From positions 1 through 22,254 of the IMG/VR virus record IMGVR_UViG_2529292906_000020: a stretch of DNA of 22,254 bases, one strand, 5' to 3'. Origin of the DNA: a virus (lineage: Duplodnaviria; Heunggongvirae; Uroviricota; Caudoviricetes). Shown in pieces: positions 1,273 to 5,969 of the stretch (position 1 is its first letter; each line of letters opens with the position of its first letter). The position numbers and the translations under genes were made by a program. Under the pieces are notes generated by a model. That model was given only the letters and a program-made list of their open reading frames with translations, had not been told where the DNA came from and did no database searches.

Positions 1273-1466
1273 GAATCCTCCCGGCCGGGATAATATTGTG
1301 AGTAAAATGAGGAGCGGGCTGAAGTCCGGAAGTTACAGGACAATGGCAGAAGAGAGACAATAGCCCGCAATACGAAAAAGGCCGCGCTATTGCGCAGAGT
1401 GATTACTGTCGGATATTATTCGCCAGCTGAAATATTACTTCACGTTTTGTTGTTTATTCCTTGCCG

Positions 1467-1494
1467 CCCGCGTCTCCCTGCGCGGGATTTTTTT
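1467..1494 (+). terminator. Rho-independent terminator-like hairpin on plus strand (CCCGCG-loop-CGCGGG followed by T7)
   Basis: 6-bp GC stem 1467-1472/1481-1486 followed by ATTTTTTT. Confidence 0.45.
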
Positions 1495-1505
1495 GTCCAT
1501 AAGAA

Positions 1506-1525
1506 AGCCCCTCCGGAGAGGGGCT
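1506..1525. repeat. Perfect palindromic hairpin AGCCCCTC-CGGA-GAGGGGCT (8-bp stem, 4-nt loop)
   Basis: Perfect inverted repeat read directly; no flanking U-tract on either strand, so not a canonical terminator. Confidence 0.5.
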
Positions 1526-1721
1526 GGAGAGTGGCGCTATGTGCCATTGCATGGTGCCGGGTGCCTCCCGGTGAATTCAGTACCAGCACCTGAATCCGCG
1601 ATTATCCCATATACCTACTCGCTGATTGCCCCTCCGCACAGGGGGATTCACCATGCCAGTTTCTTTTAACAAACTCCCCGCAAAACAGACAACTGTCAAC
1701 CGTCTGAATTGTGAGACATTT

Positions 1722-1747
1722 AAAAAAAAGGCCCGCAAAAGCGAGCC
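1722..1747 (-). terminator. Rho-independent terminator after the tRNA cluster (minus strand)
   Basis: On minus strand GGCUCGC-UUUU-GCGGGCC (7-bp stem with one G.U) followed by U8 (plus A-run 1722-1729). Confidence 0.6.
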
Positions 1748-1761
1748 AGGGAAAATAAGTG

Positions 1762-1838
1762 TGGCGCGTTGTACTGGATTCGAACCAGTGACCGATTGCT
1801 TAGAAGGCAATTGCTCTGTCCGGCTGAGCTAACAACGC
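1762..1838 (-). tRNA. tRNA-Arg (anticodon TCT)
   Basis: Manual cloverleaf: acceptor GCGTTGT/ACAACGC, D-stem GCTC/GAGC, anticodon stem ATTGC/GCAAT with loop CTTCTAA, T-arm ACTGG-TTCGAAT-CCAGT, encoded CCA; 77 nt. Confidence 0.85.
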
Positions 1839-1851
1839 AGGGTACAGATAA

Positions 1852-1928
1852 TGGACCGCCATCGAGGACTCGAACCCCGCGCAACCAGCTTCGAAGGCTG
1901 GCGCTCTATCCTGATGAGCTAATGGCGG
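1852..1928 (-). tRNA. tRNA-Arg (anticodon TCG as read from loop CTTCGAA)
   Basis: Manual cloverleaf: acceptor CCGCCAT/ATGGCGG, D-stem GCTC/GAGC, anticodon stem CCAGC/GCTGG, T-loop TTCGAGT, encoded CCA; 77 nt. Confidence 0.75.
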
Positions 1929-1935
1929 TATGTGA

Positions 1936-2011
1936 TGGTGGCCCTTGCTGGATTTGAACCAGCGACCTGGCGATTATGAGTCGCTCGCTCTCACCACTGA
2001 GCTAAAGGGCC
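1936..2011 (-). tRNA. tRNA with CAT anticodon (Met or lysidine-modified Ile2, ileZ-like in phage context)
   Basis: Manual cloverleaf: acceptor GGCCCTT/AAGGGCC, D-stem GCTC/GAGC, anticodon loop CTCATAA, T-arm GCTGG-TTCAAAT-CCAGC, encoded CCA; 76 nt. Confidence 0.8.
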
Positions 2012-2060
2012 GCGCGCAGAATAATAACGTTACGGAATTAATACTGCAATCTCATCCGTT

Positions 2061-3110
2061 TCAAACGATTAAATCCTGAACTTCCCTGACTGTCTGCTCA
2101 AAACGTCCGGTCTCCAGCTCAACACCAATCGCACGACGCCCCAGTGCCATCGCCGCTTTTACCGTTGAACCCGACCCCATGAAAAAATCCGCAACCAGAT
2201 CACCAGGACGACTACTTGCGCTGATTATCTGCTGCAGCATTTCTGCCGGTTTTTCGCACGGATGTTTCCCTGGATAGTACTGCACCGGTTTATACGTCCA
2301 CACATCGGTGTACGGCACCTGCACCGTCACACCGAAATACCGCCGCAAATTTTTATATTCACTCAGCAGTTCCATATACTGCCGGTTCAGCTCACTGTAT
2401 GTGCTGACCAGCTGGTGGTGTGGCTTTTCCAGTTCCCCGCGCTGATGTTTCTCTTCTGCCACCCGGGCAAACAGCGACTGTAATTTCAGATAATCGCTTT
2501 CATTCGGCAACTGCCACTGACCGGCACTGAACCAGTGCGACACCATGTTTTTCTTTCCTGTGGCATCTGCAATCTGTTTTGCCGTTATCCCCAGGGCTGC
2601 GCGCGCATCACGAAAGTAAGAAATCAGCGGGGCCATCACATGCTGTTTCAGTGCACTGCCCTTCGCCGCATACCCGGCATCTTTCGGACGATACGGCCCC
2701 TGATAATGTTCCGCGAACAGAATGCGCTCTGTGGCGGGGAAATACGCCCGCAGGCTTTCCTTGTTGCATCCGTTCCAGCGTCCGGACGGCTTCGCCCAGA
2801 TAATATGGTTCAGCACACTGAAGTGTTCACGCATCATGATTTCGATATCAGATGCCAGGCGATGACCACAGAACAGGTAAAGACTTCCGGCAGGTTTCAG
2901 CACCCGCCAGAACTGCGCCAGACACTGGTCCAGCCACTTCAGGTAATCATCGTCGCCCTTCCACTGGTTATCCCAGCCCTCAGGCTTCACTTTAAAGTAC
3001 GGCGGGTCCGTAACTATCAGGTCAACAGAATTTTCGGGTAACGACCGGATAAATTCCAGGCAGTCGGCGTTGATTAACTCACAACTGGATATTTTTACAG
3101 TATTAAGCAT
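2061..3110 (-). CDS. DNA methyltransferase, beta-class amino-MTase (N6-adenine or N4-cytosine); orphan, no adjacent restriction endonuclease
   Basis: 349 aa; motif IV DPPY near N-terminus (LIVTDPPYF) and motif I FFMGSGST near C-terminus, the circularly permuted order typical of beta-class MTases. Confidence 0.85.
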   Translation of the reverse strand: MLNTVKISSCELINADCLEFIRSLPENSVDLIVTDPPYFKVKPEGWDNQWKGDDDYLKWLDQCLAQFWRVLKPAGSLYLFCGHRLASDIEIMMREHFSVLNHIIWAKPSGRWNGCNKESLRAYFPATERILFAEHYQGPYRPKDAGYAAKGSALKQHVMAPLISYFRDARAALGITAKQIADATGKKNMVSHWFSAGQWQLPNESDYLKLQSLFARVAEEKHQRGELEKPHHQLVSTYSELNRQYMELLSEYKNLRRYFGVTVQVPYTDVWTYKPVQYYPGKHPCEKPAEMLQQIISASSRPGDLVADFFMGSGSTVKAAMALGRRAIGVELETGRFEQTVREVQDLIV

Positions 3111-3245
3111 GGATCATTAAGCCTGTCTCTGATAGGCTCATTCTGCTTTTGCGCAAAGCAGTGGGCCTGAGGTTTGCTTGTGAACCCAACGCATGAGCAG
3201 ATGGCTGGCAGGTGCCGCTAACACCCACCAGCCGCCCATTACCAC

Positions 3246-3273
3246 AAATAAAAAAGCCTTCACTGAGGAAGGC
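3246..3273 (-). terminator. Rho-independent terminator overlapping the 3' end of the 65-aa gene
   Basis: Minus strand GCCTTC-CUCAGU-GAAGGC followed by UUUUUUAUUU. Confidence 0.6.
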
Positions 3274-3457
3274 GTCTGTAACAACCGAACTGATAATCTG
3301 CCAGACCCGCCATAACAAGCTGGGTCAGTATTAACTGGCAACGTTCGCGTGAAAGGTAAGTATTATGCGCAATTTCCCCGACGGTCGCCGGTTCGGTGAC
3401 GCTTAATTCATTAAACACCACTCTGGCAGTTTCGGTCATATCCTGCTGTTTTAGCAT
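3260..3457 (-). CDS. Small winged-helix-like DNA-binding protein (65 aa), function unknown
   Basis: ORF with GGGAAAAGG upstream of ATG; sequence TVGEIAHNTYLSRERCQLILTQLVMAGLA resembles a wHTH recognition region; flanked by terminators on both sides. Confidence 0.5.
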   Translation of the reverse strand: MLKQQDMTETARVVFNELSVTEPATVGEIAHNTYLSRERCQLILTQLVMAGLADYQFGCYRRLPQ

Positions 3458-3575
3458 GCCTTTTCCCTTTTCTGGTTAACGTGACATACCAATAACTCTT
3501 GTCGAAAAAGCCAGCAAGCTGAAAGACCGATATTAATAACTACCAGCGCGTTTAATGTACCGCACTTCGGGCATC

Positions 3576-3599
3576 AAAAAACCCGCTCAATGGCGGGTT
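3576..3599 (-). terminator. Rho-independent terminator about 20 nt downstream of the 265-aa gene
   Basis: Minus strand AACCCGC-CAUUGA-GCGGGUU followed by UUUUGAUG (U6 run including stem end). Confidence 0.65.
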
Positions 3600-3619
3600 T
3601 AATTAATGAGGTAACAACC

Positions 3620-4417
3620 TTAACTTGTTTGATTCTGTACTTCAGTGGCCTTCTTCCCTTCAATACCTGCCTTGAAAGTCTCGAATGTTTCAACATTAAA
3701 CAGCGAAAAAGATTCGATCTGATCGAAGGGCAACACATGCCTAAACTGATAAACTGACAATGGCTCAGAAGTTAATGTGATACCCTGACTAAGGTAGTAG
3801 TCCACATAATTATGCTCAACACAAAAAGTCAGAGTATCTTTATCTCTGTACCCGGACATAAAAGGGATTAGCACCAATGTGTTAGTATCTAACTGATTGA
3901 AACGTGCCTCATCAATCATCCCCACATAGACCTTGCGAGACTTCAGTGTAACCAACAATAACAATCCACGCTCAACTGATTCAAGAAGGATATTTTCCAC
4001 GGCACTATGAGCCGCAATTTCTTCAAAAATAGCCTTGCGCTTTTGTGGGTCTTTATGGTTTTTGGTTGCCTCTGATGCCTTCCCGATACTTACAATAATA
4101 GTGAAAGCTATCGACATAGCAGGGAACATGCTCAACCCAAACACTCGCATTTTGAGAAAGTCATGGGCGAAAGTAAAGGGAGCGTACCAACCAAACAAGT
4201 ACGCTGGAATGTTCCAAAGTGACATTCCAGCGTACAGAACAACAACCAATAAGGCAGCGATAAGAATACCACTTATGAGAAACTCACCACCTTTCAGTGC
4301 AACATCAAAGTATGCATTCCAACCGATCGCTTTGCTTTGACGGTATCGTGACGGCAAATGGCAGTTGGTATAGTGATAACCACAAACTAAAACAATAACA
4401 ATCAGCGCAGCCCACAT
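3620..4417 (-). CDS. Membrane protein of unknown function (265 aa): three predicted N-terminal TM helices plus about 150-aa C-terminal soluble domain
   Basis: Hydrophobic segments WAALIVIVLVCGY, FLISGILIAALLVVVLYAGMSLW and FGLSMFPAMSIAFTIIVSI; ATG at 4417 lies 6 nt after the stop of the upstream 75-aa ORF (coupled pair); A+T-rich by eye relative to flanks. Confidence 0.7.
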   Translation of the reverse strand: MWAALIVIVLVCGYHYTNCHLPSRYRQSKAIGWNAYFDVALKGGEFLISGILIAALLVVVLYAGMSLWNIPAYLFGWYAPFTFAHDFLKMRVFGLSMFPAMSIAFTIIVSIGKASEATKNHKDPQKRKAIFEEIAAHSAVENILLESVERGLLLLVTLKSRKVYVGMIDEARFNQLDTNTLVLIPFMSGYRDKDTLTFCVEHNYVDYYLSQGITLTSEPLSVYQFRHVLPFDQIESFSLFNVETFETFKAGIEGKKATEVQNQTS

Positions 4418-4423
4418 AGAAGA

Positions 4424-4651
4424 CTAACCCTTCTTCTTAGTACTCAATCCCTTAATATTGGCTGCGAAAGCCTTTTGCACATCAGCGTTGTTGCGATTCA
4501 AAACCATCGAACCATTACTATCAATGAAAAACTTGTCACTTTCATGCTTAGCTTCTTTTCCATCACACATGGAAGCTATATCTGCAATTTTTTTGATGAT
4601 CTTCTCAGGTGAGAGGATCGCGCGAGCGGCAAGTGTTAGATATTTCGGCAT
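4424..4651 (-). CDS. Small hydrophilic protein (75 aa) of unknown function, first gene of the two-gene cassette
   Basis: ATG at 4651-4649 preceded by GGAGGGGAGC (strong SD); alternative upstream ATG at 4708 would add a hydrophobic 19-aa N-terminus (MCAYFVCVLFVFYLLTEGS) but has a weaker RBS. Confidence 0.6.
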   Translation of the reverse strand: MPKYLTLAARAILSPEKIIKKIADIASMCDGKEAKHESDKFFIDSNGSMVLNRNNADVQKAFAANIKGLSTKKKG

Positions 4652-4830
4652 GCTCCCCTCCGTTAACAGATAAAACACAAAAAGCACACAAACAAAGTAT
4701 GCGCACATCCTAACCTATGTGGCTAACAACCACTTTCTTTTATAAGATGAGTGTATTACCTAAAGGGTAACTCGGCAATAGCAGAATAGTTTTAGCAAGG
4801 TAAAATCGATGGTCTTTCGCTCAACTTACG

Positions 4831-4859
4831 ACAAAAGATAGCCCGCTCAGCAGCAGGCT
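4831..4859 (-). terminator. tR'-like Rho-independent terminator about 70-90 nt downstream of the Q-like gene
   Basis: Minus strand AGCCUGC-UGCUGA-GCGGGCU (7-bp stem, one G.U) followed by AUCUUUUGU. Confidence 0.55.
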
Positions 4860-4911: not shown

Positions 4912-4940
4912 AATGTACGCGATTTAATTGACTTTTGCAA
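4912..4940 (-). promoter_or_regulatory. Candidate late promoter (pR'-like) overlapping the 3' end of the Q-like gene
   Basis: -35 TTGCAA (4935-4940), 17-bp spacer, -10 TACATT (4912-4917) on minus strand, immediately upstream of the tR'-like terminator. Confidence 0.4.
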
Positions 4941-5619
4941 TAACCCGCCGCGAAAAGGTCGCTTTTTGTTGCGATCTTGTTTTCATGGTATAAATCAAAG
5001 ATTCGTTGTCGAGGTTCTTAAAAATGTCGCACATATCACGCCAGTAGTGCGCATAATTGTGGCTCCAGTTGTCTGACTTAACTCCACACAGTCTGGCAAG
5101 TTCCTGTCGCTGGTAGACGTCACACCCAGTAATCCTCCCCCTGACATCCTGCGCCGCCAGCCAGATTAATTTCTTCAGACGCTCAAGCGTTTTCCCTGTA
5201 ATTTTTCTGGTGCCAAAATGCACCTGAAACTTATCCCACGCCCATTTCGCAATGACCACCTGATAATCCCAACTCGGATTTTCACTGTATACCCACAGTA
5301 CCCACGCCTTCTGATGCTCTTCAAGAGACAGAACGGCGCGTCGCCATGATGATGTCGAAAACTCAACCGGACTGACTAGGGCAATTGATGAACCTTTCGC
5401 CAGCGATTGCTTTCCCGGGATCGGTGGATTATCCAGCGTTACCATTTTTCCAGTGACCTTATCGCGGTACCGGATTTTTTTACGTCTGTAACGCCCTGTA
5501 TCAAACATGGCATTCTCCTGCCAGGCTTCAAGCTGACCTTTTGTTGCCCCACTCAAATCGGCGGTGGCGATAATGAGTTGCTCACGAACAAACTGTAAAT
5601 ACTGGTTATTCATGCGCAC
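4924..5619 (-). CDS. Putative late-gene antiterminator (Q-like), 231 aa
   Basis: Called mainly by position: last gene of the nin-like region after rusA, immediately followed by a promoter/terminator pair and late-region cargo; family not verified. Confidence 0.5.
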   Translation of the reverse strand: MRMNNQYLQFVREQLIIATADLSGATKGQLEAWQENAMFDTGRYRRKKIRYRDKVTGKMVTLDNPPIPGKQSLAKGSSIALVSPVEFSTSSWRRAVLSLEEHQKAWVLWVYSENPSWDYQVVIAKWAWDKFQVHFGTRKITGKTLERLKKLIWLAAQDVRGRITGCDVYQRQELARLCGVKSDNWSHNYAHYWRDMCDIFKNLDNESLIYTMKTRSQQKATFSRRVIAKVN

Positions 5620-5969
5620 TCCAGCTCTGTGATTTTTATCCCCAACCGACCACCAGGAACAGGCAGTCCGCGCACAATATTGATTTCATCAAACTGCTCG
5701 TCGTCGATAAGCAACCCCGCATGTGTCAGTGCATCCAGTGGTGCTTTCAGAATATTGTCCAGGTCACGACGGCGCTTATCCGGTGGCTCTGCAATCACCT
5801 TTATCGCCAGCCTTCCGGACAGGCTTAATTTCAGCCGCTGCTGGCGAACAATAAGCGCCACTGCCCGGCGATAACGCTCCCCGGCTTTTGATACAAAATA
5901 TGTGCTGCCACGGCGTCGCCAGTAAGTGTTCACCGTCGGCGGGTAAGGTAAAACCAAATCTATGAGCAT
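5610..5969 (-). CDS. rusA: Holliday junction resolvase RusA
   Basis: 119 aa; LPYPPTVNTYWR, RRRDLDN and GGRLGIKITELE match RusA hallmarks. Confidence 0.85.
   Translation of the reverse strand: MLIDLVLPYPPTVNTYWRRRGSTYFVSKAGERYRRAVALIVRQQRLKLSLSGRLAIKVIAEPPDKRRRDLDNILKAPLDALTHAGLLIDDEQFDEINIVRGLPVPGGRLGIKITELECA

Follow-up and report, generated by a model that had tools for sequence, protein, structure and literature searches.

M.EcoGII, a DNA methyltransferase (MTase) of Escherichia coli O104:H4 C227-11, methylates adenine in any sequence context and also acts on RNA; it is silent in its lysogen, its constitutive expression is deleterious and could not be achieved, and M.EcoGI, with 333 of 349 residues identical, is likewise non-specific (Murray et al. 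2018, PMC5778455). Two phage enzymes of the same family, ARM81ld_p56 of Aeromonas phage phiARM81ld and PhiOS31_p25 of Serratia phage OS31, were determined by experiment to be non-specific adenine MTases as well (PMC7556043). In the com-mom operon of phage Mu and in Mu-like com operons, the gene of a toxic adenine-modifying enzyme has a structured leader that is opened by a small protein (PMC6483171, PMC3299994). M.EcoGII itself is in wide use as a tool for marking accessible DNA and RNA, and no description of the natural control of its gene was found in the literature searched. Here, a 22,254-nt stretch of DNA (positions 1 to 22,254 of IMG/VR record IMGVR_UViG_2529292906_000020, hereafter the window), which is a lambdoid prophage of E. 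coli without the Shiga toxin (Stx) gene stx, was analysed for an MTase gene, the 65-aa winged-helix gene upstream of it and the spacer between the two; these, like all other relevant genes, lie on the minus strand.

The MTase family itself is already known and has been experimentally characterised. What the locus adds is a widespread, apparently undescribed structured leader in front of the MTase gene, together with comparative evidence for an optional, not obligatory, winged-helix gene. We consider it likely that this stx-less prophage carries a non-specific MTase that is expressed late and in dependence on the antiterminator Q, hypermethylates phage DNA against restriction, and is placed under added control by its leader.

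The methyltransferase and its family

The 349-aa MTase matched PF01555 (N6_N4_Mtase) with an E-value of 1.6e-44 and a score of 152.9 bits against a curated cut-off of 26.7. Its DPPY motif (residues 35-38) stands before FFMGSGST (residues 309-316) with the target-recognition region between them, which is the beta-class order, and the catalytic motifs are intact, so that the beta-class amino-MTase named by the original prediction, a model's reading of the sequence without database searches, is borne out. The closest solved structures were as well those of the beta-class enzymes RsrI, CcrM, MboIIA and DpnA, with alignments splitting into an N-terminal and a C-terminal block.

By exact look-up and BLASTP, 342 of the 349 residues (98%) were found identical to M.EcoGII of E. 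coli O104:H4, the seven substitutions being H96R, A148E, S152R, S164A, S191P, G197S and Q244K. The reference was the sequence printed in PMC11551740 Table S1 after correction of its machine-reading errors (NHHIWA, RRRAIG, TKVPQ), which made up 5 of the 12 differences between the printed sequence and the window protein; the corrected sequence occurs exactly in genomes of the E. coli O104:H4 outbreak strain. Both proteins fall into one 90% cluster of 4845 members. ARM81ld_p56 is 56% identical to the window protein, and PhiOS31_p25 is 67% identical to the phiP27 enzyme, itself 89% identical to the window protein. Since M.EcoGII, M.EcoGI and relatives at ~56-67% identity are all non-specific, the missing sequence specificity appears to be a property of the family, and by homology the window MTase is an M.EcoGII-family N6-adenine MTase that is predicted, from its relatives, to be non-specific and to act in any context.

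The window contains no endonuclease partner, and a relative (99.5% identity over window positions 1400-3600) has none in the 20 kb to the left and to the right of its locus; RusA and a DUF968 protein were the sole nucleases. A cognate partner would not be expected where the enzyme recognises no particular site. The term 'orphan' used in the original prediction thus holds as far as the missing endonuclease goes, and fails in so far as the enzyme is not uncharacterised, being a 98% identical ortholog of M.EcoGII. The specificity prediction by alignment to characterised enzymes, which had been proposed as a check, is moot because M.EcoGII methylates adenine in any context, and with the family experimentally characterised the MTase finding as first stated is ordinary.

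Late-operon position and proposed role

The MTase gene sits between the antiterminator gene Q and the lysis genes and behind three terminators, in keeping with the late-region position first suggested. Within the late operon it comes first among the large genes, with the tRNAs, nanS-p and the holin/lysis genes 3' of it. Q is where the late transcription unit begins, and the order on the minus strand runs RusA, Q, hairpin, orf94 and orf265, terminator, winged-helix gene, spacer, MTase, tRNAs, terminator, STnc100 and nanS-p (Table 1). At the M.EcoGII locus the order matches: Q is followed by a small ORF (open reading frame), a spacer of 151 nt, the MTase gene, nanS-p and the holin gene. The MTase gene likewise stands between Q, of one of three unrelated families, and the lysis genes in Salmonella, Klebsiella and Buttiauxella; N15 and phiKO2 have an annotated late promoter and terminator before it, and in PY54, VHML and phiO18P it adjoins holin or endolysin.

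The winged-helix gene had been described as bracketed by its own terminators. Hairpins with U-runs do lie on both sides, and they are better read as successive terminators of a Q-antiterminated late operon than as belonging to that gene. A hairpin homologous to the upstream one (3574-3600) is found right after Q in phage 1720a-02, and the stem of the downstream one (3256-3273) is preserved through compensatory changes in other genera. A consensus scan of the coding strand from Q to the MTase gene found no sigma-70-like site; a promoter of the sigma-54-like or extended -10 kind near the 5' end of the spacer was considered and rejected, since spacing and hexamers did not fit and none appeared in the scan. 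Given Q, the terminators and the missing promoter, late, Q-dependent expression is the most economical reading, and it agrees with what has been published on M.EcoGII, which is silent in its lysogen and toxic; expression only late, with silence in the lysogen, would be consistent with the three hairpins and the absent consensus promoter.

The following course of events is proposed. In the lysogen, the terminators would halt transcription, and the toxic enzyme would be absent. Upon induction, Q-modified RNA polymerase would pass the terminators, so that the MTase would be produced late and a large share of the adenines in replicating phage DNA could be methylated ahead of packaging. When the phage enters its next host, virion DNA carrying N6-methyladenine (m6A) would blunt those Type I, II and III restriction systems that are m6A-sensitive. 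As an added control, the 143-nt leader, which has no Shine-Dalgarno sequence, would most likely set MTase translation or mRNA stability, and the cassette would often include the winged-helix protein as an accessory without requiring it. The protection against host restriction that the original prediction had offered as a possibility is thus favoured by the M.EcoGII-type activity expected of the enzyme and by its late position. Such context-free virion m6A should affect host range, evasion of Type I-III systems and exposure to m6A-dependent Type IV nucleases, and the cassette is very common, standing directly upstream of stx in many Stx phages.

The enzyme might instead act epigenetically in the lysogen on host gene expression, an idea raised for phage MTases and suggested by a Stx-phage MTase that affects induction and virulence (PMC10810198). 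We regard this as the least probable of all the readings considered here, with hardly any weight to be given to it: M.EcoGII is silent in its lysogen and harmful if expressed, three terminators and no promoter precede the MTase gene, and context-free methylation carries no site information.

The leader RNA and the winged-helix gene

The spacer between the winged-helix and MTase genes is the most conserved part of the region, being 81-85% identical between genera, compared with 35-44% at the four-fold sites of the MTase gene in the same pairs. A 33-codon ORF in the spacer (MGGWWVL..., E. coli and Salmonella) was considered as the cause and rejected, because it is interrupted by stop codons in Klebsiella (codon 17) and Buttiauxella (codon 8), so the constraint is not a coding one; moreover, the spacer DNA is invariant at all codon positions of this ORF. 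The spacer holds a conserved, structured RNA of 143 nt that includes the MTase start codon. Helix P1 (UGGGC/GCCCA) closes a three-way junction with the long hairpin P2 and the short P3, and the hairpins P4 and P5 follow, after which GAUC(U/C)AUG runs into the start codon, which lacks a preceding Shine-Dalgarno sequence. As coding-strand RNA, the window copy gave a folding z of -3.6 and scored 132.7 bits with a covariance model (R1).

Pairing is upheld by comparison. The five helices are supported by an alignment covering 43 species. In the MAFFT alignment, 93.5% of cells were paired versus 32-48% with partners slid, and a single pair of P3 varies among C-G, A-U, U-A and U-G. When 47 distinct, diverse sequences were aligned by fitting to the model, which biases the result towards it, compensatory changes occurred in 29 of 34 pairs, with 159 compensatory cells versus 48.6 ± 6.9 after shuffling and 21-38 after sliding. 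The sequence of P2 is wholly different in Vibrio, Acinetobacter, PY54, phiKO2, N15 and VHML with its pairing kept, and junction nucleotides (CAUUC and AACCAAGG, also given as CAUUC and AACCAAGGCCCAC) persist in the distant copies. Among other foldings, the minimum-energy fold of the single sequence pairs AUGGGC with GCUCAU, for which the comparative data favour P1, and two pseudoknots (AUCAG in the P5 loop with CUGAU before the AUG; GGUCA in the P3 loop with UGAUC) were rejected since, on inspection of the alignments by eye, variants break the pairing uncompensated. The window leader had no match in Rfam 15 at E ≤ 1, the Salmonella and VHML copies yielded only noise there (E 1.8-4.9), and no description was found in the literature searched, so the leader is apparently an undescribed structured RNA.

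The leader travels with the MTase. Weaker copies were detected by the covariance model 5' of distant MTases on a Vibrio plasmid, in Acinetobacter and Pseudocitrobacter and in a Providencia phage, as well as in PY54, phiKO2, VHML, N15 and phiARM81ld, the distant copies having E-values from 2e-21 to 6e-5. A 15-base core pattern occurred in 120 viral contigs, in 97 of which an MTase start lies 62-78 nt downstream; among the other 23, three hold the leader motif at a contig end or before a disrupted MTase gene, and 20 are chance matches without it. With 97 of 100 motif-positive contigs thus placed and the other three explained, the motif is tied exclusively to this MTase family. Of 5426 complete E. 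coli genomes, 2707 carry it, some in several copies (8 at most). Two observations were made along the way. In Trabulsiella odontotermitis (locus L015, 3023-3126), a second, degenerate copy of the terminator and the 5' half of the leader (P2 hairpin) lies ~900 nt 5' of the intact leader and precedes an inserted 160-aa ORF, which looks like a recombination scar at the leader boundary. In N15, the deposited coding sequence of gene 52 starts at 1735 (locus L092, 1501-1735), and MTase homology together with the leader AUG points to a start at 1501, so that the annotated gp52 is probably too short by about 78 residues.

The leader contains no internal terminator, which argues against attenuation and for an effect on translation or mRNA stability. 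We tentatively consider, with somewhat less than even confidence, that it represents a new class of cis-regulatory RNA gating a toxic, promiscuous MTase in response to the enzyme, a winged-helix or Com-like protein, or a small molecule, and that it would serve as a post-transcriptional lock that lets half of the E. coli genomes carry the gene safely. Alternatives to a Com-like role of the winged-helix protein are autoregulation by the MTase, which binds RNA, a host factor, a small-molecule ligand and a role of the winged-helix protein as a subunit. A covariation-supported RNA that always precedes the MTase offers a concrete and cheap experimental handle on the silencing and release of a lethal enzyme.

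A riboswitch for a metabolite, such as S-adenosylmethionine (SAM) or S-adenosylhomocysteine (SAH), would couple translation of a SAM-hungry enzyme to methyl-donor supply, and a three-way junction in the 5' untranslated region with highly conserved unpaired nucleotides (CAUUC, AACCAAGG) is what recommends it. We think this very unlikely, given that the leader is tied to a single gene family, as is more typical of protein-responsive leaders, resembles none of the SAM or SAH riboswitch families of Rfam, and shows neither a supported terminator nor an evident alternative helix sequestering the ribosome-binding site.

The small gene upstream, which had been called wHTH-like (winged helix-turn-helix), is a genuine one. 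The ratio of nonsynonymous to synonymous substitution rates (dN/dS) against its relatives is 0.03-0.13, with dS saturated between genera; the protein matches PHROG 331 with an E-value of 6e-37, and its AlphaFold2 model has the topology of a winged helix (mean predicted local distance difference test 91.6; helices 9-16, 26-33 and 37-49, then a wing of strands 53-56 and 59-62). The Pfam TrmB profile gave 18.3 bits (E 2e-3) against a gathering score of 25.6; the protein is modelled with a TrmB-type fold, and its belonging to TrmB proper is not supported by the profile score. Fold matches are generic: MarR/OhrR (TM-score 0.8), IclR, N-terminal winged-helix domains known from O-methyltransferases, and SelB, whose winged helices bind RNA. 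Being a winged helix whose 65 residues contain no CxxC pairs, the protein is not a small zinc finger of the Com type.

Matches to the protein comprise 329 clusters in Escherichia, Shigella, Salmonella, Klebsiella, Citrobacter and Buttiauxella. Among 155 loci with an MTase at least 55% identical, a family hidden Markov model placed the winged-helix gene directly 5' of the MTase gene in 107 (~70%). A diverged subtype (~50% identical) takes the same place in mEp460, cdtI, Stx2c phages and one Providencia phage, and gp51 of N15, gp51 of phiKO2 and ORF59 of PY54 are probable distant homologues judged by profile alignment (hhalign 90%, E 1.4e-6). The other ~30% of loci hold unrelated inserts, nothing, or a 79-aa CxxC zinc-ribbon ORF instead, the last in two enterobacterial loci (L021 and L029, 3558-3797); in phiARM81ld (L091, 1329-1544), an annotated Com-like zinc-finger ORF occupies the winged-helix position. 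Present in ~70% and absent from ~30%, the winged-helix gene has long and often accompanied the MTase and can be dispensed with. Loci without a winged-helix or zinc-finger ORF (~30%), and VHML, have a leader that is just as conserved. In these comparisons the leader is the invariable partner of the MTase across phage types, with the winged-helix gene being optional.

This distribution bears on the notion that the winged-helix protein is a translational activator resembling Com of Mu, which would open the leader for the MTase start that lacks a Shine-Dalgarno sequence. The layout matches Mu com-mom and the FluMu/Pnm1 arrangement of com with a non-specific adenine MTase (PMC6483171, PMC3299994). 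In phiARM81ld, a Com-like ORF directly precedes the homologous MTase gene, and the zinc-ribbon ORF substitutes for the winged-helix gene in the two enterobacterial loci; in addition, winged helices can bind RNA, with SelB among the fold matches, and the family reaches the N15, phiKO2 and PY54 proteins. We nonetheless hold it to be unlikely, as the leader's full conservation where neither ORF exists argues against strict dependence, the protein is slightly acidic by a count from the sequence and has a largely hydrophobic third helix, both atypical for a nucleic-acid binder, and in phiARM81ld the leader precedes the com-like ORF and does not lie between it and the MTase gene.

The protein could otherwise be an MTase subunit that changes substrate choice, in which case the holoenzyme would not simply be a non-specific DNA MTase. 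An MT-A70 (DPPW) MTase of an Stx phage binds an upstream-encoded winged-helix protein 1:1 and is redirected to 16S rRNA (PMC10810198), the best fold matches of the 65-aa protein include N-terminal winged-helix dimerisation domains of SAM-dependent O-methyltransferases, and M.EcoGII methylates RNA too. We judge this quite unlikely in that M.EcoGII, ARM81ld_p56 and PhiOS31_p25 are fully active alone, the precedent enzyme comes from a different family, and the gene is missing in ~30% of loci.

A third role, that of a DNA-binding, controller-like regulator with the spacer as its operator and promoter and not as RNA, would be even less probable than the riboswitch. Sources label the protein as TrmB family, its fold resembles MarR, OhrR and IclR, and some spacer variants contain a 16-bp palindrome (GCTTTAGCGCTAAAGC). 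Against these stand the pairing that survives wholesale sequence replacement and the G-U-type half-changes on the coding strand, together the signature of an RNA and not of an operator, as well as the missing promoter-like site in or before the spacer, the conservation of the spacer in loci without the protein, and the Pfam TrmB match below threshold.

Several points weigh against the preferred reading of late expression, anti-restriction hypermethylation and leader-added control. Covariation in the leader speaks for a structure and not for a mechanism, and its strongest counts come from model-fitted alignments with a bias towards the model, the margin being large. The ~30% of loci without a winged-helix gene leave models that require the winged-helix protein failing there. 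Most of the seven residues that differ from M.EcoGII fall within the target-recognition region in the centre of the protein; since enzymes down to 56% identity are non-specific, a change of specificity is unlikely on this homology. The promoter pR' and the qut site for this type of Q were not located (a paper on StxS deals with phages of the 933W/Sp5 type), and the case for late-only expression is made up of the hairpins, the failure to find a consensus promoter and the earlier report that M.EcoGII is silent in its lysogen.

Locus features and comparison with described systems

Features of the locus are collected in Table 1. In the 99.5% identical relative, the integration site adjoins yecN/cmoA, and the open reading frame at 1-1272 corresponds to the SASA/nanS-p carbohydrate esterase. 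Homology to Stx phages ends exactly at the hairpin, at position 3602, beyond which lie orf94 (94 aa) and orf265 (265 aa), the latter matching PHROG 3630, a family of unknown function. Neither gene has a Pfam match, and neither they nor the analogous inserted genes of other loci had any match in PADLOC and NCBIfam scans. Other loci have unrelated genes of 220-300 aa at this position, which makes it a hot spot of cargo-gene insertion. The tRNA triplet noted earlier behind the MTase gene was recovered as three tRNAs, of which the one with the CAT anticodon is 'Met' according to ARAGORN and tRNA-Ile (ileZ) in RefSeq and Stx-phage records. The STnc100 match occupies the position that stx has in Stx phages and terminates in its own hairpin (1506-1525). 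The window contains 10 exact Chi octamers (GCTGGTGG) in 22 kb versus ~0.7 expected by chance, located at 2411, 6339 and 11017 on the plus strand and at 3225, 6468, 6739, 7092, 7742, 9883 and 19207 on the minus strand; the excess may relate to the Chi-rich lambdoid phages.

Table 1. Positions of genes, hairpins and RNA elements around the MTase gene, in window coordinates
Feature	Position	Strand	Evidence and remarks
RusA gene	5610-5969	-	precedes Q
Late antiterminator gene Q	4924-5619	-	PF06323, Pfam E-value 1.5e-83; annotated antitermination protein Q in the 99.5% identical relative
Terminator-like hairpin, candidate tR'	4840-4859	-	65 nt 3' of Q; consensus scan; -14.2 kcal/mol, z -3.5
Two inserted genes, orf94 (4424-4708) and orf265 (3620-4417)	3620-4708	-	function unknown for both; absent from Stx phages
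Intrinsic-terminator hairpin, AAACCCGC..GCGGGUUU and U-run	3574-3600	-	sequence; -12 kcal/mol; upstream edge of the conserved cassette
65-aa winged-helix gene	3260-3457	-	PHROG 331; source annotations 'TrmB family' or 'DprA-like WH'
Terminator hairpin and U6AU3	3256-3273	-	overlaps winged-helix stop codon; -8.9 kcal/mol
Spacer, winged-helix gene to MTase gene	149 bp	-	holds the leader
Structured leader RNA, 143 nt with MTase AUG	3108-3250	-	alignments, covariation, covariance model
Leader helix P1	3234-3238/3162-3166	-	
Leader helix P2	3222-3233/3203-3214	-	
Chi octamer GCTGGTGG	3225-3232	-	inside P2 5' strand; invariant in Enterobacterales copies
Leader helix P3	3196-3199/3175-3178	-	
Leader helix P4	3155-3161/3143-3149	-	
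Leader helix P5	3135-3141/3116-3123	-	
MTase gene	2061-3110	-	349 aa, PF01555
tRNA triplet	1762-2011	-	ARAGORN, Rfam, RefSeq/Stx-phage annotation
tRNA, ileZ-type (CAT)	1936-2011	-	
tRNA-Arg(TCG)	1852-1928	-	
tRNA-Arg(TCT)	1762-1838	-	
Strong intrinsic terminator, U8 tail	1730-1747	-	after the tRNAs; -13.8 kcal/mol, z -3.9
STnc100 small RNA match	1495-1685	-	Rfam, 139 bits versus gathering score 47
nanS-p-type esterase gene, first 424 codons	1-1272	-	start at 1272 (MAFKHYDVV...), cut by the left window edge

Compared with described systems, the M.EcoGII/M.EcoGI type of E. coli O104:H4 C227-11 (PMC5778455) shares the length of 349 aa, the DPPY...FxGxG order and the locus order. It differs in that the winged-helix gene at the M.EcoGII locus is of the mEp460 subtype (34 of 65 residues identical to that of the window) and that Q there belongs to PF06530, whereas the Q of the window belongs to PF06323. 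ARM81ld_p56 and PhiOS31_p25 are of the same family and stand in the same position just before the lysis genes, and are much more diverged than M.EcoGII; phiARM81ld has a weak copy of the leader motif as well, and the Com-like zinc-finger ORF takes the place of the winged-helix gene.

Type II restriction-modification systems with controller (C) proteins are similar in placing a small helix-turn-helix gene beside an N6_N4 amino-MTase, and the best PADLOC model was 'MTase_II'. In contrast to them, the window has no endonuclease, its small protein is a winged helix and not a C protein of the XRE type, and its enzyme presumably lacks a recognition sequence. M.EcoPA8orf6770P-PNB-2 of the Stx phage phiPA8 (Gong et al. 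2024, PMC10810198) is also an MTase of a Stx-type prophage with a small winged-helix gene immediately upstream and co-transcribed. It is an MT-A70 enzyme (DPPW) from another phage region, has little activity by itself and in the complex acts on 16S rRNA, whereas the window enzyme belongs to PF01555 (DPPY) and has close relatives that need no partner for full activity; family, motif and phage region rule out that the two are the same gene, and the resemblance is one of analogy only.

For the leader, Mu com-mom and the Mu-like operons of com with adenine MTases (Hin1523, Hia5, Nma1821; PMC6483171, PMC3299994) may be taken, by analogy, as the nearest functional precedent. The likeness is in the logic of the arrangement, namely a toxic, broadly protective, late adenine-modifying enzyme whose gene is preceded by that of a tiny nucleic-acid-binding protein and by a structured leader. 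The differences are that Com is a zinc finger, that Mom is not a methyltransferase, and that the leader of the window has no known similarity to the Com target.

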